Shown: in pieces, positions 5,561-17,956 of the stretch
Position numbering within the stretch: position 1 is the stretch's first letter
Layout of the letters: each line of letters starts with the position of its first letter
DNA from: an uncultured Rickettsiales bacterium
GTDB taxonomy: Bacteria > Pseudomonadota > Alphaproteobacteria > Rickettsiales > SXRF01
Direction of reading: 5' to 3'
Assembly (NCBI GenBank): GCA_964645205.1
Contig: CAZYBO010000006.1
Location: 892 to 64,891 of the forward strand
Length of the DNA stretch: 64,000 nt
Translations under genes and position numbers: made by a program
The notes under the pieces: generated by a model
The model's database searches: none
The model's input: only the letters and a program-made list of their open reading frames with translations
Told to the model about the DNA's origin: nothing

Positions 5561-6619
5561 ATGAGGCATCCTGCCCCCATGAAAATTGGCAAGTTCCTCA
5601 TATTGGCGATCGCGGCGACTGCGGGTGTTATTTATTACAACCGCTTCAGCGCGTTATCGAATATCACCGACGGGTTCAGCGGCGGTAGCAGCACCGGCGG
5701 CATGGAATATTCCAATAGCGAAAATAGCGGGCGCAACACCATGCTCGGCGCGGTCGGCGGCATACAGGGCGGCGACGGCTCCAGCGGCGGCGCGTTGATG
5801 GATATGCTGAACAACAAGCCTTCATCCCCGTCAAAAACCGTCGATAGTGAAGCGATAAGGCATGGCGTGGCGCTGCTTAAAGCCTCTGCCAAAGGCGACC
5901 TCAAAGAGGTGGAAACCCTTCTCGGCGGAAAAGTCAAAATCGACATGCGCGACAATGAAAAGCGTACGCCTCTGATCTACGCGAGTTGGAACGGCTACAA
6001 CGATATTTGCGCGAAGCTGCTCTCGGCCGGTGCGAATATTCGCCTGCTGGATAAGAACGGTTTTTCCGCCTACGATTACGCCGCCGGGCGCGGATTGGCG
6101 GAAACGGTCGCGCTACTGCTCAAGCGCACGCAGGGTAGCGACGACAAGCACTACCAGCAATATGCAAAGCTGATGCAGGCAGCGTTGACGAGCGATATAT
6201 CACGCCTGCCGCAGGAAAAAGGGCTGCTCGCCAGTATCAACCGTATCAGCCCAGAGGGGCAATCTCCCCTGCACCTTGCGGCGTCCAGCGGCTATATCGC
6301 GCTGGCGGAAGCGTTGGTAACTCACGGCGCGAACGTCAACCTTGAAAATCTCCAACGGCAGACGCCGCTGCACTGGGCGGCATGGAGCAACCAGGCGGCG
6401 ATCATCGCATGGTTCGGCAGCAAGGGCGCCGACAGTTCATTGCGCGACGTAGCGGGGAACACTGCCCTGATGCTGGCTGCGGAGAATAACAGCACCGACG
6501 CCGCAAAAGCGCTGCTGCAATTGGGCGCGAAAAAAACCGCCACCAACAAACAAGGAAAAACCGCCGAGATTATCGCCGAAGATAAAGGCCACAAGGAACT
6601 GGCGGAACTGCTGCGCTAG
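5561..6619 (+). CDS. Ankyrin-repeat protein with N-terminal signal/TM segment
   Basis: Hydrophobic N-terminus MKIGKFLILAIAATAGVIYY (alternative start 5579). Several ANK repeats, e.g. RTPLIYASWNGYNDICAKLLSAGANI, QSPLHLAASSGYIALAEALVTHGANVN, QTPLHWAAWSNQAAII and NTALMLAAENNSTDAAKALLQLGA. The track ORF start at 5432 overlaps tsaE and was trimmed. Confidence 0.75.
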   Translation: MRHPAPMKIGKFLILAIAATAGVIYYNRFSALSNITDGFSGGSSTGGMEYSNSENSGRNTMLGAVGGIQGGDGSSGGALMDMLNNKPSSPSKTVDSEAIRHGVALLKASAKGDLKEVETLLGGKVKIDMRDNEKRTPLIYASWNGYNDICAKLLSAGANIRLLDKNGFSAYDYAAGRGLAETVALLLKRTQGSDDKHYQQYAKLMQAALTSDISRLPQEKGLLASINRISPEGQSPLHLAASSGYIALAEALVTHGANVNLENLQRQTPLHWAAWSNQAAIIAWFGSKGADSSLRDVAGNTALMLAAENNSTDAAKALLQLGAKKTATNKQGKTAEIIAEDKGHKELAELLR

Positions 6620-9600
6620 GGCTTGGCTGTAGCGGCGGGCACAGGCTCGATGCCTGCGCTTTTGATTTCCGCCTGATAAGTGGTGATAAAGGTTTTGGTG
6701 TCGGCAAAGTATTTCAACAAGTCGTCGAAATTCGTCGTTGTCAGCCTTATATCGCCGCTAGTGATGAAATTGAACACAGACTTGTTGGGATTATTCACCA
6801 TCAAGGGGTCGAAATAATCATGCAGATATTGTAACTGTACGGTGTCGTCCTGAAAAATATAAGCGAGCGCCAACTTGAGCAGGTACTCACTTTCGTCAAT
6901 GGTGATGGGAGCCGCAACATCCTCGCGCTCCTTAAGCAGCGCTTCGATGCTTGCGGTAAGTTTCGCCCAGTCTTTTTCCGCCCAGTATACACTGATGCGA
7001 ATACGCTCAGCCTCAGGGCTGGTATCCTGCCCAAGCGTTTCCAATGCCTTGTCCGATTGCCCTTGCACGACCATGGCCTCGGCGGTGATCCGGTTGCGTT
7101 GCAGGCGCAGCAACAGCGAGTTCTCGCCATACACCGAATCCTGCAGCGCCTGCAGCGCCTTGGCGGGCTGGTGATTCATGAGGTAGATGGAAGCGAGCTT
7201 GGCGCCGATCTCGCTGCGATGTTCTTTTTCCGCCTGCGAGCGCATCTGGCGGTCGAGTAGCACGATCGCCTGTTCCAGAAGGTCGAGCGACACCAGCTTG
7301 TCCGCCAGCCTGCTTACGATTTCATCGCCCGCGATGCCCGGCGGCGCGTAGTTGCGGTAATCGTTATAGATCGCGAGCGCATCCATGGTCGAAAGATTGC
7401 TGTCGCTGTTGAACAGCGTGATAAAGGCTTCCTGCATCCGCCGCGACATTTCCTGCGCGTAGGACGTATTGGGAAAACCGGTGACGATGCCGTGCCAAAT
7501 GCGCATGGCGTTGATGTAATCTTTCTGCTCGACATACAGATCGCCCAGCAGTGTGGCGATATTCAATTCAAGGCTGTCGCCGTGCCACGCCAGCCGCAAG
7601 CGCTCGAAATTCTCGATCGCTTGCTCCTTGGTAATATTGCCCTTGTTCATGTTCCAGACGGTACGTGAAAATTCCGCACGTGAGCGCACGAACGGATGGT
7701 CATAATCCTCCGCCAGCTTGTCCCACATTTCGAGCGCCTCTTTCTCCTGCCCGGTTTCCAGCGAGATTTTCGCCAGCAGAAAATTGATGTAGGCGTGGAT
7801 CGGATCGAGCTGGTTGCCGGATTCCATCGTGTCAAAAATCTTAAGCGCCGTGTTGTATTCCTTGGCGGCAATGCTGCGGTCAGCCGACACGATCGCAAGG
7901 CGCTGCCGCAACACGGGCGGGTATTTGCTGATGTAGTCTTGGTTGAGCGCGAGGTAATCGTAGATCTGGTCAGCGCTGCCGAGCAGGTCGGAAAGCATGC
8001 TGCGCCAGTAATCAATTTCCTTGTTATTGTTCAACTCGGCGGCCGCGAAATCGCGCGCGGCGTCGGGGAAACGGTACATGAGGAAATTGGCAGCGCCGCG
8101 CATGGCGCTGACCTTATTGCTGCGGTAGAAGGAAGGATTGGTGCGGTTGATGCCGTCGATATAGGCGAGCGCTTCCACCGCCATGCCTTCGCTGAGATAA
8201 AGCTGCGCCATGCGCAGGCGAGCTTCGTTGGATTCCTGAGAAGTCTCCGCGCCCACGATGCGCTGGAACAAATCGCTGACCTGCGCGGACATTTTTTTCG
8301 GATCTTCCGCCTTCCACTGCTCATGAGGAAACAATGTTACGATGCTCTGCGACGCACCCGCCTGTGTTTCCAGCTCCGCCTTGGGAAGGCCGGGCGTTAG
8401 CGTCGCGCCGTTCGGAAGCGAAATGCGCAGGCCGTTGCGCAGTTGCACCACCGACACATCGTCGGATTTTTTATTTACCGCCACGCCCTGCGCCGTCGCC
8501 AGCAGCGAAAACTCTACGAATTCGCGCGTCTGCGCGATACCCTCGCCGACGTTAAACAGCGGCGTCACGACCATCTCATCGCCGATAAGCGGGTCGGTAA
8601 TGATCACAGGATCGGCAATCTCAAGGCTCGGTATGAACACATGCGGCGGCACGGGGGGATCGGTATTCACTGCCGCCACCAGCGCGTTGGCCAGCGGGCG
8701 CTTCTGCGGTGTGAGCAGCACCGCCCAGTCGTAGCTTTCTTCTTCCTTGGCCGTGCTGATGAACACCGTATCTTCCATCTGCATGCGCAGGATCGTGTGG
8801 GTTTTCGACGCCACCACTTCCGGCTTGCCGATAACCGTGCGCGGCATTGGTTCAAAATCCACGAGATCGACCGGCAGCGGACGGTTGAACACGATCCACA
8901 GCGTATGCGAACGCGCGAATACCGCCATCGCCGTGCGTTCGGCAAACGGGAAACGCAGCACCGCATTGTCGTTCCCGGCGGAAAGATTCACTCTGAGCTT
9001 GCCGGATTTATCAACGGTCGCTTCCTGCTGCGGCGCGCCTATGGCCTGACCGTCACCCACTTCCGCCGTGGCGGGTGGAAGTGTTATCTTAGGTTCCGCA
9101 GGCGCTTCCGCCTTTGCAGGCGCGGGGGCAGGAGTAACGGCGGGTTTTTCGACAGGTTTTTCCACTGCCGCTTCCGCAGGAGCCACCGGTATGGCGGGAG
9201 CAAGCGATTTTTCCAGCGGCGGCGTCACCACTTGCGGCACGGTGGCTTCTGCGGGTTCGGCGGGTTTTTCCGGCGCAGGTTCGGCAGGCGGCGTGCCCAC
9301 GCTCAGCGTCTCCTGCTTTGCCTCCACGGGTTCTCCAGCCGCAGGCGCAAGCGCGGCGAATCGTTTCGCCTCCGCAACCATGGCGTCCTTAGGTTTCGCC
9401 GCGGGTTTGCCGTCAACCTTGAGCAAGTCGATACCGTTGATCGTATCGCTGACGAAGGTGCGGATGCGGTAGGCCTTATTGAGCGTCAACACAACGGTTT
9501 TACCGTCCGGCTTGCGCTCGGCACTGATAACATAGGGCGAAAGCTGTTGCAGCAATTGCTTGAAATCCGGCCTCGCCTTACGATCAAACGTAATAGAAAC

Positions 9601-9792
9601 CTGCTTGCCGTTAGCCTTCACGGTGAAAAATACCGGCACCGGCCATTCAAACGTAATGCGCGCATGGTCGCGCATCATCGAGCCGTGCACCACCGGCACG
9701 TTGGATACCTGCGCGGACGGCGCCGCCACCGGCAGGCCGGGCGCAACCAGCGCGGCCGAAACCACGGAAAAACCTATCAGCTTGAACTTCAT
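6616..9792 (-). CDS. Very large (1058 aa) exported protein: signal peptide, AMIN-like beta domain, Pro/Ala/Glu-rich linker, C-terminal TPR-like helical repeats
   Basis: Signal-like N-terminus MKFKLIGFSVVSAALVAPGLPVAA. Low-complexity tract PAEPAPEKPAEPAEATVPQV. The long C-terminal half has TPR-like A/L/Y periodicity. Antisense ORFs are Arg-rich shadows. Confidence 0.7.
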   Translation of the reverse strand: MKFKLIGFSVVSAALVAPGLPVAAPSAQVSNVPVVHGSMMRDHARITFEWPVPVFFTVKANGKQVSITFDRKARPDFKQLLQQLSPYVISAERKPDGKTVVLTLNKAYRIRTFVSDTINGIDLLKVDGKPAAKPKDAMVAEAKRFAALAPAAGEPVEAKQETLSVGTPPAEPAPEKPAEPAEATVPQVVTPPLEKSLAPAIPVAPAEAAVEKPVEKPAVTPAPAPAKAEAPAEPKITLPPATAEVGDGQAIGAPQQEATVDKSGKLRVNLSAGNDNAVLRFPFAERTAMAVFARSHTLWIVFNRPLPVDLVDFEPMPRTVIGKPEVVASKTHTILRMQMEDTVFISTAKEEESYDWAVLLTPQKRPLANALVAAVNTDPPVPPHVFIPSLEIADPVIITDPLIGDEMVVTPLFNVGEGIAQTREFVEFSLLATAQGVAVNKKSDDVSVVQLRNGLRISLPNGATLTPGLPKAELETQAGASQSIVTLFPHEQWKAEDPKKMSAQVSDLFQRIVGAETSQESNEARLRMAQLYLSEGMAVEALAYIDGINRTNPSFYRSNKVSAMRGAANFLMYRFPDAARDFAAAELNNNKEIDYWRSMLSDLLGSADQIYDYLALNQDYISKYPPVLRQRLAIVSADRSIAAKEYNTALKIFDTMESGNQLDPIHAYINFLLAKISLETGQEKEALEMWDKLAEDYDHPFVRSRAEFSRTVWNMNKGNITKEQAIENFERLRLAWHGDSLELNIATLLGDLYVEQKDYINAMRIWHGIVTGFPNTSYAQEMSRRMQEAFITLFNSDSNLSTMDALAIYNDYRNYAPPGIAGDEIVSRLADKLVSLDLLEQAIVLLDRQMRSQAEKEHRSEIGAKLASIYLMNHQPAKALQALQDSVYGENSLLLRLQRNRITAEAMVVQGQSDKALETLGQDTSPEAERIRISVYWAEKDWAKLTASIEALLKEREDVAAPITIDESEYLLKLALAYIFQDDTVQLQYLHDYFDPLMVNNPNKSVFNFITSGDIRLTTTNFDDLLKYFADTKTFITTYQAEIKSAGIEPVPAATAKP

Positions 9793-9888: not shown

Positions 9889-10542
9889 CTATTTCTTGCC
9901 GCCGATGCTGGCGAACAACGCGTCGATATCTTCCTGCGAAGATGCCTGCGCAGCCAGTTGGGGGCCGTTTAGCAGCGATGCGTCGTCCTCTACGGATACC
10001 AGCTTGGGCGCAGGAATCCCGGCGCCTTCGACCCCGAACAGGTCGTTGAGCTTGGTAATGCGCTCCTCAAGGTTAGTCAGCAGTTTGATGACTTTGGTGA
10101 TGCGCTGGCCGGTTACGTCCTGGAAATTGCAGGCCTCGTAGATGCGCATGCTGGCATCCATGATCTGCTGTTCCTTTTCCCCGCCCACGCCGCCTGCTGC
10201 GGCCTGTATCTGGTCGGCGGCGTCCATGATCGTATTGGTGGCCGCTTCCGTCGATTTGATAACTTCGTCGAGATGCAGCGAAGCGTCGCTGATCGCCTGT
10301 TCCGACTGGTCGGTGGTGGAGATGGCGAAAATTTCTTTTTTTGCGCCTTCGATATAGGCGACCATGCGCGCGATCTCATCGTGCACCACGCGGTCGATGG
10401 CGGATTCCCTCGGGCTAAGCGTGGAAGCCAGTTGTATGAACATGGCGCCGACATCCTCCAGCGACATATCGCCTTTTTGCTGGCGCAATTCGCCGAGGCT
10501 CTTCAGCAGGGCATGGCCAAGTTTCGCTTGCATGTCGCTCAT
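9889..10542 (-). CDS. cheZ: CheY-P phosphatase CheZ-like protein
   Basis: Active-site helix motif ACNFQDVTGQRITKVI matches the E. coli CheZ FQDLTGQ (D143/Q147) region. Acidic C-terminal tail EDIDALFASIGG resembles a CheY-binding peptide. Lies immediately downstream of cheY. Confidence 0.75.
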   Translation of the reverse strand: MSDMQAKLGHALLKSLGELRQQKGDMSLEDVGAMFIQLASTLSPRESAIDRVVHDEIARMVAYIEGAKKEIFAISTTDQSEQAISDASLHLDEVIKSTEAATNTIMDAADQIQAAAGGVGGEKEQQIMDASMRIYEACNFQDVTGQRITKVIKLLTNLEERITKLNDLFGVEGAGIPAPKLVSVEDDASLLNGPQLAAQASSQEDIDALFASIGGKK

Positions 10543-10572
10543 AGCGGACTCCGGGTTATGGTGTGGAGATGG

Positions 10573-10959
10573 TTAGAAATCGCCGATAACGCTGGTCAGC
10601 TTGCCCTTCAGCGTTTCCGCGTTGAACGGCTTGACCACGTAATTGCTCACGCCCGCCTGCTTTGCGGCGATCACGTTTTCCGGCTTGCTCTCGGCCGTCA
10701 CCATGATGAACGGCATGTCTTTCAGTTTGGCGTCGGCGCGTACTTGCTTCAGCAACTCCATGCCGGTCATGGGTTCCATGTTCCAGTCGGAGATGATGAG
10801 GCCGTAGGATTTCTCCTGCATTTTCTTGAATGCTTCCCCACCGTCGGCGGCTTCGTCGACATTGTCGAATCCGAGTTGCTTCAGGAGATTCCTGATGATC
10901 CGGCGCATGGTGTTGTAATCGTCCACCACCAGAATCTGCATTGCTTTATCGACGGCCAT
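10573..10959 (-). CDS. cheY: Single-domain chemotaxis response regulator CheY
   Basis: 128-aa receiver with ILVVDD, phospho-acceptor context [14 protein letters not shown] in MVTAE and K in VVKPF. Confidence 0.9.
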
Positions 10960-11003
10960 AAAAATCCTCTCAACGTTATGCCCCTTACTGTAAAACAGAG
11001 TTT

Positions 11004-11050
11004 TTAAGGTAGCGTTAAAGCGGATACGGTGTTTTTTAAGCTCTCGTTAA
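11004..11050 (-). promoter_or_regulatory. Two TTAA-N7-TTAA (CtrA-box-like) motifs upstream of cheY
   Basis: TTAAggtagcgTTAA at 11004-11018 and TTAAgctctcgTTAA at 11036-11050, which is 45-90 nt upstream of the cheY start. Confidence 0.4.
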
Positions 11051-11057
11051 GGCTTAA

Positions 11058-11756
11058 CTAGGATAAATCGAAGAAAATCAACGTACTTGCTACTGAGGCG
11101 TGTACATTTAAGACATCTCCCGCATTGCTGAATGCCACCCCGTCGCCCTGCCGGAGCCGTGAGGTGCCGAGCGTCACCTCGCCCGACGCCACCTGCAGCC
11201 AACCATGGCGCGAAGGTGAAAACGGCAGCGGCAGCAGCGCGCCTTCATCCATCACCGCTACATACATCTTCGCATCCTGATGAATGCGGATGCTACCCTC
11301 CTCGCCCGTTTCGCTGGCAACCAGCGCCCATCCTTGCTTTTCGCGTCCGTCGGGTATCCATTCGCCATAGCTGGGCGTTACGTCCTTAGTGTGCGGCATG
11401 ATCCATATCTGCAGCAGGTGCACCGGCGTATCCTGCGTGGCGTTGAACTCGCTATGCGTGATGCCCGTGCCCGCGCTCATGCCCTGCACTTCGCCAGCGC
11501 GGATTACACGGCCGTTGCCCATGCTGTCGCGATGCGCAAGCTCGCCCGACAATACGTAGGTGAGAATTTCCATGTCGTTATGCGGGTGCGTGCCGAAACC
11601 CTGGCCGGGCGCGACCGTATCTTCGTTGATCACGCGCAACGCGCGGAAATGCACATGTTCCGGGTCGCGGTATGTGGCGAAGGAAAAAGTGTGGTAGGTA
11701 TCGAGCCAGCCGTGGTTGGCGTGCCCGCGTTCGTCGCTGCGCCGGATGGTTAACAT
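11058..11756 (-). CDS. Pirin family protein (cupin)
   Basis: Motifs HANHGWLDTYHTFSF and GFGTHPHNDMEILTYVLSGELAHRDSMGN. Start trimmed to MLTIRRSDERG. Confidence 0.85.
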   Translation of the reverse strand: MLTIRRSDERGHANHGWLDTYHTFSFATYRDPEHVHFRALRVINEDTVAPGQGFGTHPHNDMEILTYVLSGELAHRDSMGNGRVIRAGEVQGMSAGTGITHSEFNATQDTPVHLLQIWIMPHTKDVTPSYGEWIPDGREKQGWALVASETGEEGSIRIHQDAKMYVAVMDEGALLPLPFSPSRHGWLQVASGEVTLGTSRLRQGDGVAFSNAGDVLNVHASVASTLIFFDLS

Positions 11757-11978
11757 AACATGCTCCTTTTCGTCCCGAAGTGATGCAAGCGTATGTAGGC
11801 GTTTTGTATGAAAAAACAAGGCGTCAACCGCTAAAGTTATCACAAAAAAAATAAAAGCCTTGACCCGTATTTCACATTGAACCTTCGGTCAAGGTTTTTT
11901 ATAATCGGAAGCTGTGGGAAGGTCCCACACCATCCAGTAGGTTCAGAGGTTTTTGGAAAAGGAAGGATTAGTCCGCTT

Positions 11979-12287: not shown

Positions 12288-12363
<76 letters not shown>

Positions 12364-12407: not shown

Positions 12408-14366
12408 TTATCCTTTTTCCTCCAGCGTCTTCAGATTCCACCCGTCCACCAGTTGCCGCCACATGGCGAGGTCGCTTTGCGTTACGCCGATTTTAGGAAT
12501 GAGGAACAGCGCGGTGACGAACGGCTCCTCATACAGCACCGTGACATGCCAGCCGCGCGGGTGCTTGTGTTTGGTGAGCCACAGGCCTTTTTGCGCCACC
12601 TGCACCGCGCCGCGCCTGCTGTCCGTGTCGGAGGCGGCGAGGAAAGCAGGGTTTTCCTGCATGGGACACTGCACGATACCGGCGGGGAAGCGGCGTGCGA
12701 ATTCTTCAAACAACGCCTGCTTACCTTGTATTTCGCCGGGCGGCGTGCGGTGCAGGAACGCGCTGCGCGCGCGCGCATAGGCATCACGCCCGTTCTCGCC
12801 CGTCACGCTGTCTATCGCCGTCACATAGCCGAACCCGTGCAACGCCATGCGCGCATCGGGCGTATGGTCGCCCGCCACCAGCACCTGCATACCGTCCACG
12901 CAGGCGCTGCCTGAAGTCGCCGCAAGCGCGTAGGCCGCGTCGAAACGCGCCGCCGATTGTGCCGACGGGTGAAACGCCAGCCGCGTGATGACGGTCGCGC
13001 ACGTACGGCGGCGTACCTTTGCCGCCCATGGAAAATACGATACGACCGCATCACCCGCCGCGTGCCACGGCTGCGCCAGCAACCGCCAACCGAGCCACGC
13101 GCACAGCAGCAACGGCGCGGGCAACGCAATGCACAACGGCGCCATTTTCATCAGCAGCCACAGCAGCGCATAATGCAGCGCACACAACAACGCCGTCGCA
13201 CGGTAGCGCCTGCGCGAAAACAGGCTCACCAGCACGAAGCCGAGCGCAGGACTTGCGAGCATGGTGACAACCACCAGCGCCACATCCGCAGGCGCCGTGG
13301 GCGTGAACATTAGCAGGCACAGCGCCGCCAGCGCCGCAAACAGCAGCGCAAGCGCCATGGAAAAACGCAGGCCTTCACGTTCCATCATGTGCCGGAAACC
13401 GGCAAAAATATCCATGTGCGTGCGCGACAGGTCGAAATACATCGCCTGCGCCCACCCCATGCCCGCGCGTATCAGTGGCATCACCATATACATCGCGAAC
13501 ACCAGCTCCTGCGCGGCGGCAAGCTGCAACAAAAACACCACCAGCATATCGTGCATGCGGATACCGAGCGACGCCGCTGCAGGCAGCAGCAACGCGCGCG
13601 CGCGGTGATGCCGGAACACGCGCCGCACCATGCGCAGATCGTAGAGTTTCGCAGGCGTAACGCGCAGGTAATCCGTTACCCTGCGCACCGCGCGGAAACT
13701 GATCGACGCCACCACCGCGCTCGACGCGAGAATGCACAGCGGCACCGTCCATTCGCCGAGTTGCGCGTGCAACAGCATGCCTAGCATGAACACCGCGATT
13801 TCCGGGCCGAGTATATATTCCATCGGCAGGAACACGCGCTGGAGCGCGAACGCGCCGGAATGGTACGTTCGGCTGACGATCCGCACCGACGCCTGCACAC
13901 CCATCGCCGCCACCAGCGCGGCAAACGGCAGCGACTGCGCGGCCACCATCCATGCCAGCAGCAACGCGCACAGCAAAAGCGCCGAGGAAACCAGCGCGGA
14001 GAGCGTTACCCAGCCCGCGATTTCCTGTTGGATGGCAGGCAGGTTCCGCTGCGCGCGCAGCAGGCGTATACGGTGGCGCATCGCATCGGTCGCGCCCCAC
14101 CAGCTTCCTTCCAGCGCCAGCATGAGCAGGCGCAGCAGCATCGCATGGTACGCCACCGTGGGAAACGCCGCCAGCAACAGCATGAATTCCACGATATGCA
14201 GCGTGGCGCGCAGCAACGCCTGCACGACCACCGGTCGCGCACGGTGCAGGAAATAGGGCAGCGTATCGCCGGTAAATACGAGATCGGAAAGCGGCGCATG
14301 GCGCAGCGCACGCCGCCGCTGCCGCGCGAACCAGTTTTCCAGCTCCGGGTTAGCGGTTGCGTGCAT
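12408..14366 (-). CDS. Polytopic membrane protein (about 10-12 hydrophobic helices) with ~200-aa soluble C-terminal domain. Unknown family. Partner of the reverse transcriptase
   Basis: 652-aa ORF. Its ATG at 14364-14366 lies 17 nt inside the upstream RT ORF. Repeated long hydrophobic stretches, e.g. FMLLLAAFPTVAYHAMLLRLLMLAL and LALLFAALAALCLLMF. Overlapping ORFs in other frames are Arg/Ala shadows. Confidence 0.7.
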   Translation of the reverse strand: MHATANPELENWFARQRRRALRHAPLSDLVFTGDTLPYFLHRARPVVVQALLRATLHIVEFMLLLAAFPTVAYHAMLLRLLMLALEGSWWGATDAMRHRIRLLRAQRNLPAIQQEIAGWVTLSALVSSALLLCALLLAWMVAAQSLPFAALVAAMGVQASVRIVSRTYHSGAFALQRVFLPMEYILGPEIAVFMLGMLLHAQLGEWTVPLCILASSAVVASISFRAVRRVTDYLRVTPAKLYDLRMVRRVFRHHRARALLLPAAASLGIRMHDMLVVFLLQLAAAQELVFAMYMVMPLIRAGMGWAQAMYFDLSRTHMDIFAGFRHMMEREGLRFSMALALLFAALAALCLLMFTPTAPADVALVVVTMLASPALGFVLVSLFSRRRYRATALLCALHYALLWLLMKMAPLCIALPAPLLLCAWLGWRLLAQPWHAAGDAVVSYFPWAAKVRRRTCATVITRLAFHPSAQSAARFDAAYALAATSGSACVDGMQVLVAGDHTPDARMALHGFGYVTAIDSVTGENGRDAYARARSAFLHRTPPGEIQGKQALFEEFARRFPAGIVQCPMQENPAFLAASDTDSRRGAVQVAQKGLWLTKHKHPRGWHVTVLYEEPFVTALFLIPKIGVTQSDLAMWRQLVDGWNLKTLEEKG

Positions 14367-15735
14367 AGGTCAACGAACGTAGGCGCCAGCGCGCGCGTAT
14401 GGTGCGGTAGGGTATGCGTCGGAACCCTTTGACGCTACTGTCGTGCAGCATCACACGCAGCACCAACCGCGCCAGCCAGTAATCGAGGCGCTTCAATTGC
14501 GCGCGGTCGTTCACCAGATAATTGAGCAGCCCGGCGTAAGGATGCGCATGCGGCGCGTGCGGATCGATCGCGTTACTGAGTAAGCGGCAGAGCGCCTTCC
14601 CGCGTTCCTCGAACGGCAACGTCTGCATCGCTTTCGCACTGGCATGGGCGCGAGTGGAAAGGTCGCGCATCAGCAGCTTCAGCTTGTCCTGCTTGAGCGA
14701 GATCGCGCCGCGAAAATCCATGCTACAGCCGAGATAATCTATGCGCGTCGTGCCCGCAAATCCGCCTGCGTCCCTGCCCGCTCCGTTGAAAAACAGCGTT
14801 TTCGTTTTCTGCGCATTGCGCGTAAGCGAGAGCGCGGCAAGCACGTCGTCCACCGCCGCCACTGCGTTTTTAAAGCGCTGTGCATCCGGATGCGCGAATA
14901 GGATGTCGTCACCGTAGCGCGCATAAAATCCGCCTTCGGTTTCGCCCAGCAGCCTGTCGAGCGGCAACGCATAAAGGTTGAGCAGCAGCGCCGAGATGGG
15001 CGCGCCGTCGGGGATGCCGCGCAGCAACTGGTATTCCCCGCCGTCGGGATGCATGATAACCGGGCGGATCAGCTGCTCCAGCAACACACGCTCCTCAGGC
15101 GCCGGAGCGCACAACGCATCGAGCTGCGCCCAAAGCGGCGAACACGGCGCCACCGGGATCGACTCGCCATACGCCCTGATGTCGCAGCGCAGTACATACA
15201 GCCCGCGCGCTTTCGGATCCGCATATACCGCACGGTGGCGGCGAGCGAACGCGGCGAAGTCCTGCATCGCCTGCAAGCGATTGCGCCCCTTGACATAGGC
15301 GTAGAGCGTGCGCGGCAATTGCGGCAGCACATGCTCCGCCAGCATCCTGTAGACCGCGCCGTGCACGATGCGATCCATCAACGAAAAGCGGAACACCACG
15401 CGCTGCTTATCCAACAGGATCGTTCTGAGCGCGGCGGGCGAAAAGCGGTACGCGCTCCCCGCCACCGCTTTCGCCAGTATGCGCGAAAGCCTGCGTTGGT
15501 CGAAGAATGCCTGCGTGAAGCTGTAGCCTTCCGGCTGCGTCTGGTGCAGCGACGTCTGGAATTGGGTGGAGAATTTGTGGTGCAGATCGGCGATCGCCGC
15601 GCGGTAATAGCCCGCCTCAGCCGCCTGCCGTATCAGCGGCGCGGGCAACGACTCAGATGCCCAGCTCCGCCGAGAAGCTGCATATCTGGTTGCTGCTGTT
15701 GGAATATTGACCTCCGGGGGTGAAGCAGTCCGCAT
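14350..15735 (-). CDS. Reverse transcriptase (RNA-directed DNA polymerase), unclassified lineage, YGDD catalytic box
   Basis: Ordered RT motifs: RVVFRFSLMDRIVHGAVYRML, YVLRCDIRAYGESI, LLRGIPDGAPISALLLNLYALPLD, YARYGDDILFA, LSLTRNAQKTKTLFF, IDYLGCSMD. Start uncertain: ATG at 15735 overlaps the pilin-like gene by 83 nt, and the alternative TTG at 15646-15648 lies 4 nt after that gene's stop. Confidence 0.8.
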   Translation of the reverse strand: MRTASPPEVNIPTAATRYAASRRSWASESLPAPLIRQAAEAGYYRAAIADLHHKFSTQFQTSLHQTQPEGYSFTQAFFDQRRLSRILAKAVAGSAYRFSPAALRTILLDKQRVVFRFSLMDRIVHGAVYRMLAEHVLPQLPRTLYAYVKGRNRLQAMQDFAAFARRHRAVYADPKARGLYVLRCDIRAYGESIPVAPCSPLWAQLDALCAPAPEERVLLEQLIRPVIMHPDGGEYQLLRGIPDGAPISALLLNLYALPLDRLLGETEGGFYARYGDDILFAHPDAQRFKNAVAAVDDVLAALSLTRNAQKTKTLFFNGAGRDAGGFAGTTRIDYLGCSMDFRGAISLKQDKLKLLMRDLSTRAHASAKAMQTLPFEERGKALCRLLSNAIDPHAPHAHPYAGLLNYLVNDRAQLKRLDYWLARLVLRVMLHDSSVKGFRRIPYRTIRARWRLRSLTYARNR

Positions 15736-16339
15736 AACCTGTCTGGTTTCTGGCTCTTACCGTACCGCTGTCGGGAAGGCCGTCATCCATTTTTTCGTCG
15801 ATATAGCGGGTTTCCAGCGCTGAAATCGCAGGCAAGGTGGCGATGGAATTGCCATCAAACCCGCCGAAGAAAAGCACGTTGATATTCGTGCCGCGGAATA
15901 CGCCAACCGTCCATCCCGCGTTGGGCAGCGAGGTCGATGCGGGGATGTTGACCGTAGGCTGGGCGATGCAGCTCGCAGCGCAGCCGGTGATGTTGAATGG
16001 GCCGGAGCTGATAAACCCGGAAAGCTCCATTTCCTTCCACGCGCTCGGCCCTTCGGTGCGCCACAGGATCACGCTGTTGCCGTTACCTGCCAGCAGCGGC
16101 GGCGTGTTGGCCAGCCAGTAGGTTCCCGGGTTGCGCAGGTCGCCGGGAAGCTGATCGTATTTCAGGCGGAACTGGCCGAATCCCTGTTTGTATGCTTCGA
16201 TTTCCTTGATGATATTGCGGTCGCGCGCGCTGATGTAAATATCACGGCCGATGAAAATACCGCCTACCGTCAGCGCGACGATCAACAGCACGACGGATAT
16301 TTCCACGAGCGTGAAGCCCTTTTTCCAGCCGTCTTTCAC
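15653..16339 (-). CDS. Prepilin-type N-terminal cleavage/methylation domain protein (type IV pilin / T2SS pseudopilin-like)
   Basis: GTG start. N-terminus MKDGWKKGFTLVEISVVLLIVALTVGGIF is the class III signal (G/FTLxE plus hydrophobic helix). The C-terminal globular part contains Cys residues. Confidence 0.75.
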   Translation of the reverse strand: MKDGWKKGFTLVEISVVLLIVALTVGGIFIGRDIYISARDRNIIKEIEAYKQGFGQFRLKYDQLPGDLRNPGTYWLANTPPLLAGNGNSVILWRTEGPSAWKEMELSGFISSGPFNITGCAASCIAQPTVNIPASTSLPNAGWTVGVFRGTNINVLFFGGFDGNSIATLPAISALETRYIDEKMDDGLPDSGTVRARNQTGYADCFTPGGQYSNSSNQICSFSAELGI

Positions 16340-16513
16340 AAGGCGCGTCCTTTCATACGGGGGAGCGGGATGGTAACTGTGTCTCTTTTTGGTTATCCGC
16401 CAAGACCGCGATCTCTGGCAGGATAGAAAGGCTGGCTTGCGCCAGTGCCGCTCCCCCGGCGCTAGTTATAAGATCGCGCCGGAGCGATTACAAGCGGAAA
16501 CAAAAACGGGAGG

Positions 16514-17956
16514 TTAGAGTCGCGGCGATTGCTGCGGCGACGTATCGGCGGCCAGCGCTTTCGCCTGCCAGACGGGGGCGTCTTTTTGCAGCGGTGGCGT
16601 GGCAGCAGCCGCAAGCTGACGTGGCCGCGCCTGCGTCGCGCCCATCCACGGGTTGCTGCGCAGCGCGGCTACTTCCGTGCGCAGGCGCTCTTTCACTTCG
16701 CCGTCTTTCATCGCCAGCACGTCCGGGCGTCCCAGAAATACGGATAGGTATTCTATCAGATGCGGCTGGTATCGTTCGGGCTGTTTCACGATCAGGTCGG
16801 CAGCCAGCGCGATCACGCTTTTATCCACGCTCTCATCGCTCTTTACGCCTTCGCCATGTCCTTTGGACGACATCATGATCAGCATTTCCGCCGCGAGGTT
16901 AGTGGCCACGAACCATGCGCGATTCTTGATGGAATCAACCTTGTCAGGCAGGTTGAGCCGCTTATAGAGCCGGTATTCGATCACGCTGCTGACGGCGTGG
17001 CACAAGGTGCTGAGCATGAGCCCGGCTCCTGCGATCGCCAGCGGTTTTTCCTGCACCCATTCCAGAACGGCTTTTGCGCCCTCGGATTTCGGCTTGTCGG
17101 GATCGGCTACTTTTTCTTTCACCAGCCCGCCGATAGCGGTAGACGCCATAGTCAGCGTGCCGAGGCCGACATCGAGGAACCCGGCGTTTTTATAGATTTG
17201 CCTGTCACGCACCGTCACCTGCCCAGCCTTGAGGAAATCGGGCACGTTGATAACTTTGTGCCTGACCGCGGCGGCGGCAATACACGCGCCTGCCAGCCCC
17301 GTGAACAGGTTGAACATTTCCGACGGATAACGGCGGAACACGCCGTCCACTTTACCCAGCATGGATTGCGGCCCATGATCCGACTCATGCACCTGCAGGC
17401 AATCCGGCGGCAGTTTTTTTACTTCCCGGATAAGATGCTGCGTGATGCGTTTAGAAAGGTCTTTGACCTGAATATCGGATTGATCGTTACGCCCATATCC
17501 CACCAGCGACACGGTGCCGCCCGCATACATGATGCCCGCCATCATGTCTTCCCATGACGCGCCTTTCCTGCCGTAGGTGAAGAAATTATAGTCGCCGACG
17601 GCATAAAAAAGCCCGCTGGCCTGCAGCGTGCGCTTTTTCACCTTGTCCTTGAAACTGATTTTTTCGCTGGCAAGCGTGGTGACTTTCGGCTGCCCCTGCA
17701 CCGCGCCGTCCTGCACGAGGCAAGCGAGCACTTCCACATCGCGCTTGAACCCGCGTACTTCCAGCGCCGGTTTTCCGGCATGCATGCAGGGAATACACTG
17801 GAACCCGGTTTTCTGCAGTCTGCAGGTAAGGTCGTGCAATTTCTGGACATCGGCCTGCGCGGTAGCGTGCAGATACGCGCGATGGGCGCCCTTCTCGGAC
17901 GTCTCGAACATCGCTTGTTCAATCAGCTTGGCTTCCGGGTAGTGGTACGTACTCAT
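16514..17956 (-). CDS. Hypothetical membrane protein (480 aa). Soluble N-terminal ~100 aa, several Gly/Ala-rich TM segments, Pro/Gln/Ala-rich tail
   Basis: Long ORF with coding-like composition. Hydrophobic segments include FNLFTGLAGACIAAAAV and PLAIAGAGLMLSTLCHAV. No family recognised. Confidence 0.6.
   Translation of the reverse strand: MSTYHYPEAKLIEQAMFETSEKGAHRAYLHATAQADVQKLHDLTCRLQKTGFQCIPCMHAGKPALEVRGFKRDVEVLACLVQDGAVQGQPKVTTLASEKISFKDKVKKRTLQASGLFYAVGDYNFFTYGRKGASWEDMMAGIMYAGGTVSLVGYGRNDQSDIQVKDLSKRITQHLIREVKKLPPDCLQVHESDHGPQSMLGKVDGVFRRYPSEMFNLFTGLAGACIAAAAVRHKVINVPDFLKAGQVTVRDRQIYKNAGFLDVGLGTLTMASTAIGGLVKEKVADPDKPKSEGAKAVLEWVQEKPLAIAGAGLMLSTLCHAVSSVIEYRLYKRLNLPDKVDSIKNRAWFVATNLAAEMLIMMSSKGHGEGVKSDESVDKSVIALAADLIVKQPERYQPHLIEYLSVFLGRPDVLAMKDGEVKERLRTEVAALRSNPWMGATQARPRQLAAAATPPLQKDAPVWQAKALAADTSPQQSPRL

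Follow-up and report, generated by a model that had tools for sequence, protein, structure and literature searches.

Does a reverse transcriptase (RT) gene that overlaps the gene of a large membrane protein belong to one of the RT systems already described, or do the two form part of something else? The question is raised by a 64,000-nucleotide stretch of contig CAZYBO010000006.1 from an uncultured Rickettsiales bacterium (hereafter the window), in which a first-pass annotation had noticed an orphan RT followed by a polytopic membrane protein that ends beside tRNA-Thr(CGU), and had proposed an RT-based system of abortive-infection type. We compared the locus with its relatives in genomes and metagenomes. 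The RT, the membrane protein (which we call MEM) and a structured RNA make up a rare but widespread module, and the three are linked almost without exception across about ten phyla. What it adds is an RT lineage that no modelled group covers, a structured RNA without a match in Rfam, and an entirely unannotated family of large membrane proteins that comprises ~500 clusters at 50% identity.

Placement of the reverse transcriptase

The translation of the RT gene holds every motif string that the first-pass annotation had quoted (RVVFRFSLMDRIVHGAVYRML, YVLRCDIRAYGESI, LLRGIPDGAPISALLLNLYALPLD, YARYGDDILFA, LSLTRNAQKTKTLFF and IDYLGCSMD), so that the full motif series is present, and Pfam RVT_1 matches it with 49.8 bits against a cut-off of 29.6. 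The protein consists of fingers, palm and thumb followed by a conserved C-terminal helical region, and its catalytic Asp residues are intact. A conserved Tyr stands near the C-terminus in a ...PYR... motif. In an alignment of 23 family sequences (A1), the Asp of motif A and the Y-x-R-x-x-D-D of motif C are invariant, and motif C of the family reads Y/F-[G/S/C]-DD. Since the position before DD can be G, S or C, the YGDD noted at first annotation is present in the window RT but is not diagnostic of the family.

An AlphaFold model of the RT built from 23 homologues (predicted local distance difference test score, pLDDT, 93) matched solved RTs at E ~1e-17. The closest folds in the PDB are those of DRT9 (9vma and 9nlv; E = 8.5e-18, template-modelling (TM) score 0.65), followed by the group II RT GsI-IIC, G2L4, the RT of a diversity-generating retroelement (DGR) and DRT2, all at 15–20% identity. 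A profile search of PDB sequences with the RT returned the same relatives, with 75 bits for GsI-IIC and 36 bits for G2L4; AbiK (33 bits) and retron RTs (~23 bits) are much more distant. The PADLOC models gave weak, partial matches (Drt9, 82 bits; generic RT, 74; UG4, 66; UG26, 63; Drt2, 63; UG17, 48; retron models, at most 36), and when all 23 family RTs were compared with the PADLOC RT models, the best E-value to any model was ~1e-28. NCBIfam scores fell far below their cut-offs throughout: 62 against 390 bits for Drt2, 58 against 300 for the group II RT/maturase model TIGR04416, 53 against 200 for Drt3a and 27 against 235 for retron_St85_RT. The strongest profile matches were mostly to Class 2 groups of PMC9226505 (UG28, UG26, UG4, UG2, UG17 and UG39), all of them weak, and a match to the Cas1_IIIb model was limited to the RT part of that model. 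Because the profile scores are weak and the fold and PDB matches point the same way, the RT appears to lie near the class 2 UG/DRT and group II-like RTs, in no modelled family, the classes compared by profile being those of PADLOC, NCBIfam and the PDB, with the G2L clades represented by the solved G2L4 alone. This bears out the suspicion that the RT stands outside the modelled classes.

The first-pass annotation had also set aside group II introns, DGRs and CRISPR-associated RTs, and the comparison agrees. No intron RNA occurs in the window and the flanking genes abut the RT. Between positions 9000 and 20000 there is no pair of template and variable repeats beyond one chance 45-nt match at 71% identity, and no Avd among the neighbours; the called neighbours on the window contig and in the relatives contain no cas domains. 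The distant similarity to GsI-IIC and TIGR04416 is what might speak for a decayed, functionless remnant of a group II intron, a retron or a DGR. Such a remnant is, however, hardly credible here: across ~150 loci in many phyla, the open reading frames (ORFs) are unbroken and the catalytic residues do not vary, no intron or retron RNA family reaches its threshold, no template/variable repeat pair is present, the retron RT models score as low as stated above, and the purifying conservation of all three parts effectively refutes the idea.

A near-obligate membrane partner and a structured RNA

We scanned one genome per species, which yielded 74 loci of the RT family (L005–L078), and obtained four more loci through contig look-ups; MEM was detected in the loci with local jackhmmer on six-frame ORFs. 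A MEM homologue stands beside the RT in every locus of L001–L075, that is, in 73 of 73 non-redundant RT-anchored loci. MEM almost always follows the RT immediately, overlapping or abutting it; in Legionella one gene lies between the two, in Waddlia (L075) MEM is immediately upstream of the RT, and in L037 it is ~2 kb upstream. For the reverse comparison we used 73 MEM-anchored metagenome loci. Of the 52 that extend at least 600 nt beyond the upstream end of MEM, 50 carry a family RT, which in 49 stands directly upstream on the same strand; the contigs of the other two end just after MEM. The pairwise identities of RT and MEM are correlated (r = 0.90 over 59 loci, Mantel p = 0.001). The co-conservation that had been proposed as a check on the annotation is therefore borne out with a single exception, L161, and the RT-MEM pair is close to obligate.

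The family spans ~10 phyla. Its members come from metagenome-assembled genomes of Alphaproteobacteria/Rickettsiales, from Legionella gratiana, L. longbeachae, Coxiellaceae and Waddlia chondrophila, from many Myxococcota, from Bdellovibrionota/Oligoflexia, Verrucomicrobiota and Acidobacteriota/Aminicenantes, and from Gaiellales and other Actinomycetota, Chloroflexota and one anammox planctomycete. Cultured carriers are available in L. longbeachae (CBJ13858.1), L. sainthelensi and L. gratiana. We considered whether the myRT paper's "unclassified RT" CBJ12261.1 might be the Legionella member, but the accession found for the latter is CBJ13858.1, which is another protein, and we claim no link.

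In the window, the six-frame ORF list confirms that the RT and MEM ORFs overlap by 17 nt, with the RT stop codon (14350–14352) inside the 652-aa ORF as first described, and the two genes are translationally coupled. The RT may start at either of two codons. The database gene call for this exact protein uses the TTG at 15648, 4 nt past the stop codon of the preceding gene, which encodes a pilin-like protein; a start at the ATG at 15735 makes that ORF overlap the RT by 83 nt.

MEM itself is a large family. An exhaustive HMMER search returned ~500 representatives at the 50%-identity level, 416 of them at E <= 1e-10, and nearly all are full-length matches of 650–720 aa. As the first-pass annotation had supposed, the protein cannot be assigned to a family: scans of one sequence and then of 30 gave no match in Pfam, PADLOC or NCBIfam, and a profile search found no relative in the PDB. 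Residues conserved in the 30-sequence alignment include W89-W90-G91, several Arg (R97 and R177 among them), P297 and Y310-F311-D312. The description of a polytopic protein with a C-terminal domain of ~200 aa stands, with ~10 predicted helices (range 8–11) instead of the ~12 counted initially. An AlphaFold model shows ~11 long helices followed by an alpha/beta domain, but is poor (pLDDT 59) because only four sequences entered its alignment, and Foldseek found nothing significant with it, the top folds being MOP-superfamily exporters (E >= 0.07, TM ~0.2).

At least seven MEM representatives (960–1090 aa) carry an added C-terminal hydrophobic helix and an HlyD membrane-fusion domain; L017 is the only genome locus with an HlyD domain fused to MEM. 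HlyD domains are periplasmic. Because these variants add one helix and a periplasmic domain, the ~200-aa domain that precedes the addition should be cytoplasmic and the number of helices even. The predicted topology of MEM is thus a cytoplasmic N-terminus, ~10 helices and a cytoplasmic C-terminal alpha/beta domain. Two further representatives, P0129 and P0154, end in a cyclic nucleotide monophosphate (cNMP)-binding domain, and in L. longbeachae the gene between RT and MEM (L070:11334-12461, also in L064) encodes a cNMP-binding domain with an Rce1-like CAAX protease. These recurrent cNMP-binding domains fit a ligand-gated membrane effector. The L070 locus additionally has a GGDEF-EAL protein upstream and a weak 2H-phosphoesterase match downstream.

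The third part of the module had escaped the first-pass annotation, which had correctly seen no non-coding gap directly upstream of the RT; a conserved structured RNA is nonetheless encoded one gene further on, upstream of the pilin-like gene (Table 1). When the 500 nt upstream of the RT were compared across loci, blocks conserved between phyla appeared, with the common core (A)GAGAYYGCGGUCUU. The window contains one exact copy (16403–16416, minus strand), in the gap of 175 nt that precedes the pilin-like gene. The core folds into a hairpin, P3, whose 5-bp inner stem is closed by a YGCG loop and which also has a bulged A and a variable outer stem; GAGAY-YGCG-GUCUU is invariant in it.

Covariation in P3 was tested on 41 nt around the core in a gap-free alignment of 39 loci (A5). 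The proposed partners pair in 85.3% of cells, compared with 40–53% when they are slid by 1–3 columns; two-sided changes occur in 95 cells, compared with 39.4 ± 4.7 in shuffles; and the covariation score is 0.569 against 0.221, a value that 0 of 500 shuffles reach. One pair changes from AU to GC in 8 sequences and from AU to UA in 2, and switches of inner-stem pairs from AU to GC or UA are seen in Chloroflexota, Actinomycetota, Rickettsiales and other lineages. G·U pairs are more numerous than A·C pairs (46 to 15, p = 9e-5), which assigns the structure to the RT-strand transcript rather than to a DNA palindrome. A palindrome or operator in double-stranded DNA is ruled out by this excess and by the long-range helix that encloses P3.

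That closing helix, P1, has 10–17 bp in every locus, and its outer part is wholly different between lineages (GCUACCCUGGUGA/UCGCCAGGGUAGC and GGAGAAGGAGGCA/UGCCUCCUUCUCC in relatives, CGGGGGAGCGG/CCGCUCCCCCG in the window). We scored P1 by its best helix, as the MAFFT alignments A4 and A6 left it out of register for a column test, and obtained a median of 32, whereas 660 random control positions gave 23 (Mann-Whitney p = 1e-22). Among the 27 RNA elements of A6, the outer part of P1 covaries and the innermost pairs and junction are conserved, with ...CGG-CUC on the 5' side and a YCAAY-type motif followed by CCCG on the 3' side; these nucleotides may be an RT contact or an initiation site.

The minimum free energy fold of the window RNA coincides with the comparative structure (-46.6 kcal/mol, z = -4.0), and single-sequence folds in L024, L014, L049 and L056 have the same architecture (z = -3.8 to -5.7). 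Across these five lineages the layout is P1, P2, P3, sometimes P4, and a 3' single-stranded stretch, and it is recovered in the Coxiellaceae locus L056 even though the hairpin model gives no match there. The element measures 84–106 nt in Alphaproteobacteria, ~130–145 nt in Myxococcota, 140–170 nt in Actinomycetota and 170–200 nt in Acidobacteriota. Its single strand is rich in A and C (A 29%, C 34%, U 19%) and has no conserved U-tract. No version of the element matched an Rfam family.

We built a covariance model of P3 (R1) and ran it against 1.42 Mb of locus sequence together with the window. It matched beside the module, on the RT strand, in 52 genome loci, and made a single match in the whole window (33.6 bits, E = 3.4e-7). 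In the independent MEM-anchored metagenome set it matched in 31 loci, always on the module strand. We also considered phage-borne copies of the RNA. Viral contigs contain 48 exact matches to the core, which we judge to be chance because they come with neither RT nor MEM and reach only core-level model scores.

In most loci the RNA lies just upstream of the RT. It precedes an inserted first gene in the window, L002, L004, L005 and L162, and lies just downstream of MEM in Chloroflexota and in L049, L074, L085, L091, L094, L117 and L131. More than one copy of P3, and probably of the whole RNA, precedes the RT in L035 (9124-9775; three in tandem at a spacing of 305 nt) and in L007 (9635-9911; two, 236 nt apart). 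These positions bear on the question of whether the RNA is only a cis-regulatory leader (a riboswitch, attenuator or protein-binding leader), in which case the RT would need no RNA of its own and could, for instance, carry out untemplated synthesis from a protein primer like AbiK or DRT1. The location of the element in the 5' untranslated region of most loci, 50–300 nt before the first gene of the unit, suits a leader, as does the U-run that follows the 3' strand of P1 in L004, and class 1 UG/Abi RTs are reported to work template-free. Relocation downstream of MEM and duplication nevertheless disfavour a purely cis-regulatory RNA, no Rfam leader or riboswitch matches, and the closest relatives of the RT are ncRNA-templated class 2 enzymes and not AbiK; we consider the leader explanation improbable.

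A separate repeat occurs in L017 (9530-9774), where 8.7 tandem copies of a 28-nt unit (GCGTCTCGGTCTTGGCGGCGCGGTATCG) stand between P3 and the putative 3' strand of P1. The unit includes a copy of the 3' half of P3 (GGTCTTG), and the array could be due to replication slippage or be a trace of repetitive RT products.

Upstream of the RNA in the window, promoter-like hexamers (Table 1) would place the start of transcription near the 5' end of P1. This is only a suggestion, because the site failed the sigma-70 criteria of the tool used; Acidobacteriota relatives have TTGACA-N17-GACAAT at the equivalent position.

Table 1. Features of the module and its surroundings in the window (minus-strand RNA parts are given 5' to 3').
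Feature	Position	Strand	Description
RT gene	14350..15735	minus	461 aa from ATG at 15735, or 432 aa from TTG at 15648
MEM gene	12408..14366	minus	652-aa polytopic inner-membrane protein; near-obligate RT partner
Pilin-like gene	15653..16339	minus	228 aa, prepilin-type N-terminus (KKG|FTLVEISVVLLIV); between RNA and RT
Structured non-coding RNA or 5' leader	16358..16458	minus	101 nt
P1 closing helix	16458-16448 with 16368-16358	minus	
P2 hairpin	16445-16441 with 16436-16432	minus	GCAA loop
P3 hairpin	16425-16411 with 16406-16394, loop 16410-16407	minus	invariant core AGAGAU-CGCG-GUCUU
A/C-rich single strand, candidate template	16393-16369	minus	25 nt
Promoter-like hexamers	TTGTAA 16493-16488, 17-nt spacer, TATAAC 16470-16465	minus	by eye
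tRNA-Thr(CGU)	12288..12363	plus	convergent neighbour; conserved synteny; module membership not shown

Mechanism and role

In class 2 DRTs, adjacent non-coding RNAs (ncRNAs) serve as templates. DRT2, DRT9 and DRT10 all bind a neighbouring structured ncRNA, in which a short template is copied repetitively, and for DRT10 and the SLATT-linked DRT9 it has been proposed that the product regulates a membrane effector (PMC12483538, PMC12632851). By analogy with these three systems, we infer RNA binding, templated cDNA synthesis, an effector role for MEM and defence. As mechanism we think it most likely that cDNA is made from an RNA template and either controls the membrane partner or is handed on to it. 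The RT would bind the invariant P3 hairpin and the junction of the RNA and copy part of the A/C-rich single strand into cDNA; the cDNA, or a ribonucleoprotein, would then engage the cytoplasmic C-terminal domain of MEM and so control its membrane domain.

DRT10 (UG17) is one of the closest known systems. It is likewise tripartite and encoded on one strand: besides a structured ncRNA of ~100–140 nt at its 5' end it has a membrane protein and a stand-alone RT, the two proteins show tight co-evolution, and the DRT10 cDNA is proposed to control the membrane effector (PMC12632851). The operon of ncRNA, membrane protein and RT by which DRT10 is recognised is thus found here too, a resemblance in architecture only. 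The RT_UG17 model scores a mere 48 bits with the window RT (best among family members, E = 3e-19), and the SLATT partner of DRT10 has 2–3 helices, whereas MEM has 650 aa, ~10 helices and a cytoplasmic domain and matches nothing in PADLOC, Pfam or NCBIfam. In addition, the order here is RT then membrane protein, the RNA core is another one, the context is not a defence island, and the telomerase-like A-B-A signature was not detected.

DRT9 (UG28), an RT with an upstream ncRNA that carries out protein-primed poly-dA synthesis (PMC12483538), gives both the best fold match and the best PADLOC model, with similarity that reaches into the thumb and the C-terminal region; it too has an adjacent structured ncRNA, and some of its loci have SLATT membrane partners. 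The score is nonetheless far below family level and covers part of the profile, with 16–18% identity. Motif C is YADD in DRT9 and Y/F-[GSC]-DD here, and the U-rich template loop that is universal in the DRT9 ncRNA contrasts with an A/C-rich strand in the present RNA; the near-obligate large membrane partner is a further difference.

Retrons with transmembrane effectors (for example Retron-Eco6/Ec48) share the logic of RT, ncRNA and effector, and the long closing helix of the RNA is analogous to the retron a1/a2 inverted repeats. Their RT models match poorly, however (23–36 bits), no Rfam retron family matches, the effector families are unrelated, and the RT here has ~440 aa with long N-terminal and C-terminal parts. 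The UG4 RTs resemble the present family in accompanying surface-appendage genes and in not being enriched in defence islands (Mestre 2022, PMC9226505; myRT, PMC8934634), and RT_UG4 is among the better matches of the window RT (66 bits over positions 31–244 of 307 in the profile, not family level). UG4 RTs, however, have ~300 aa, are mostly plasmid-borne and stand beside the chaperone-usher genes FimA/C/D (PMC9226505, PMC8934634), whereas the window has one gene for a prepilin-type, type IV pilin-like protein, found in one clade only. With the G2L RTs, finally, the module shares a stand-alone chromosomal RT without intron RNA, whose fingers and palm are closest to those of group II and CRISPR-associated RTs. 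The G2L4 enzymes described have YIDD, a role in DNA repair and no known membrane partner. By the features compared above, the module belongs to none of DRT9, DRT10, retrons, group II introns, DGRs, CRISPR-RTs and UG4, and in the literature on RTs with membrane partners, on the names DRT11 and above, and on Legionella RTs we found no published description of an RT-RNA-MEM module.

What the module does for its host is a separate matter. We put the probability that it serves in abortive-infection-type phage defence, with MEM as the effector, at roughly 45%. The proposal made at first annotation remains plausible by analogy, and is weakened by the lack of a defence-island or mobile context and by the absence from viral contigs. 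Several observations weigh against defence, or against the module as we describe it. Neither ~10 annotated contexts nor a clustering of the neighbours of 75 loci showed an integrase, a transposase or a recognisable defence gene, and 2.9 million viral contigs contain no family RT. Synteny is retained between genomes whose RTs are 50% identical, which is atypical for defence systems; and the family occurs in obligate or facultative intracellular lineages (Rickettsiales metagenome-assembled genomes, Coxiellaceae, Waddlia and Legionella), where phage pressure is thought to be low. The HlyD fusions and the adjacent genes for MacB, ABC, adaptor and OEP proteins point to transport rather than killing. 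As to the RNA, no template could be pinpointed within it, a telomerase-like A-B-A repeat is not enriched in its 3' single strand (40% of elements and 40% of shuffles), and R1 finds no hairpin in Legionella, Waddlia and ~15 other loci. Lastly, L161 (10001-11332) has an intact family RT, 48% identical to that of the window, with no MEM within 10 kb and no P3 hairpin found over the same distance. Its flanks hold a TetR gene as well as MarR and cytochrome bd genes, and it is the only orphan RT seen.

A role in export or in the envelope stays alive because of the housekeeping, syntenic context, the intracellular lineages, the absence from viruses, the HlyD fusions and the exported partners. In such a non-defence function, MEM would be an inner-membrane translocase with a periplasmic adaptor and outer-membrane partners; the product of RT and RNA, or an RT-linked nucleoprotein, would be exported or would build or modify a surface structure; and the variable exported partner (pilin-like protein, Cys-rich lipoprotein or protein tagged for the type IX secretion system, T9SS) would share this extracytoplasmic function. 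The HlyD domain and extra helix of at least seven MEM representatives agree with this, as does an operon of MacB/FtsX, ABC, adaptor and OEP genes that adjoins the pair in L001, L007, L002 and L003 in two arrangements. So do the signal peptide, lipobox or prepilin leader seen by eye in the product of the upstream gene in Gram-negative lineages, where one family, c0, accounts for 27 loci, and the exporter folds at the top of the poor MEM model. But HlyD fusion or adjacency is confined to 5 of 75 genome loci, the resemblance to MOP exporters is not significant, and the Gram-positive-type lineages (Actinomycetota and Chloroflexota) have the core of RNA, RT and MEM without such partners. We know of no precedent for RT-coupled export. 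Taken together, an envelope function is possible though rather unlikely.

In its most specific form, the module would be an RT-coupled envelope machine and not an immune system, in which MEM, as a dedicated translocase, would carry a nucleic acid or protein-linked nucleic acid made by the RT-RNA complex across the envelope, in some cases via a fused HlyD adaptor and an outer-membrane factor. The product would work there with the pilin-like or another secreted partner, and the machine would be vertically inherited in users that are predatory or host-associated (Myxococcota, Bdellovibrionota, Legionella, Coxiellaceae, Rickettsiales and Chlamydiae). We consider this version improbable.

The defence reading remains the one we favour for the role, and RNA-templated control of MEM for the mechanism. 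The mechanisms recently solved for DRT2, DRT3, DRT9 and DRT10 diverge markedly in the making and the use of cDNA. The present module brings an RT lineage, an RNA and a partner family that are all new to the common theme of RT, ncRNA and effector, and there is a real chance that its biology is different. Since it is chromosomal and syntenic and occurs in intracellular and predatory bacteria, it may represent a domesticated, non-defence use of an RT; alternatively, it may show that nucleic-acid control of membrane effectors reaches well beyond SLATT proteins.

Accessory genes and chromosomal neighbours

Around the core, the module carries lineage-specific extras: an exported protein, here the pilin-like one, cNMP-binding domains or an HlyD-type adaptor. 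The pilin-like gene, which the first-pass annotation had left unmentioned, overlaps the unit in the clade of the window and is part of it there. Its product has a GFTLVE N-terminus and matches Pfam N_methyl (E = 3e-4) and NCBIfam IV_pilin_GFxxxE (22.4 bits, cut-off 16.3). Homologues at the same position are confined to the alphaproteobacterial loci L002, L004, L005 and L068, and the gene is a clade-specific accessory. In 27 loci, mainly of Myxococcota and Bdellovibrionota, RNA and RT are preceded by a member of the c0 family, whose lipoproteins contain Cys-rich MopE/Stig1-like repeats and end in a C-terminal domain that is conserved. At this position, other Gram-negative loci encode unrelated signal-peptide proteins (by eye), among them one with a T9SS-type C-terminal domain and one with a cytochrome P460-like domain.

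The MacB/FtsX permease, ABC ATPase, RND/HlyD-type adaptor and OEP operon adjoins RT-MEM in Rickettsiales-type loci, convergently in L001 (11336-15935) and L007 and divergently in L002 (1503-6904) and L003. We considered linkage to HlyD or MacB as a general feature of the module and rejected it, as it is present in only 5 of 75 loci.

The position of the module beside tRNA-Thr had suggested an accessory island. The distance of 45 nt between the MEM stop codon and the 3' end of the tRNA gene is as first given, and a spacing of this kind would suit an accessory or defence island that had inserted recently on the 3' side of tRNA-Thr. The interpretation nevertheless failed. L004, whose RT is only 50% identical, shares with the window ZnuA, an amino-acid permease, a 480-aa ORF, the pilin-like gene, RT, MEM, tRNA-Thr(cgt) and DUF465, and because it keeps these flanking genes, the adjacency is an old inherited synteny and not an insertion scar. 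There is no integrase and no direct repeat of the tRNA end, the GC content of the locus is host-like as stated at first annotation (0.59–0.64 against a window mean of ~0.59), and other family loci have no tRNA nearby; tRNA-Thr(cgt) does not follow MEM in L001, L002, L005 or L068. A recent island is therefore very unlikely.

Elsewhere, the module is surrounded by ordinary genes for metabolism, regulation and transport. In the window, the 480-aa ORF (16514-17956, minus strand) lies directly upstream of the RNA; it gave no match in Pfam, PADLOC or NCBIfam, has a homologue at the same place in L004 only and is not part of the core module. On the tRNA side, the neighbours at 6616-9792 and 9889-11843 (both minus strand) look like ordinary chromosomal genes. 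They include a 1058-aa Ala/Pro-rich protein with TPR-like C-terminal repeats, whose counterpart in L004 has 1038 aa and a faint Pfam TPR_19 mark, a 217-aa ORF, a 128-aa CheY-type response regulator-like protein and a 261-aa pirin-like protein, the names being given by eye from the translations.

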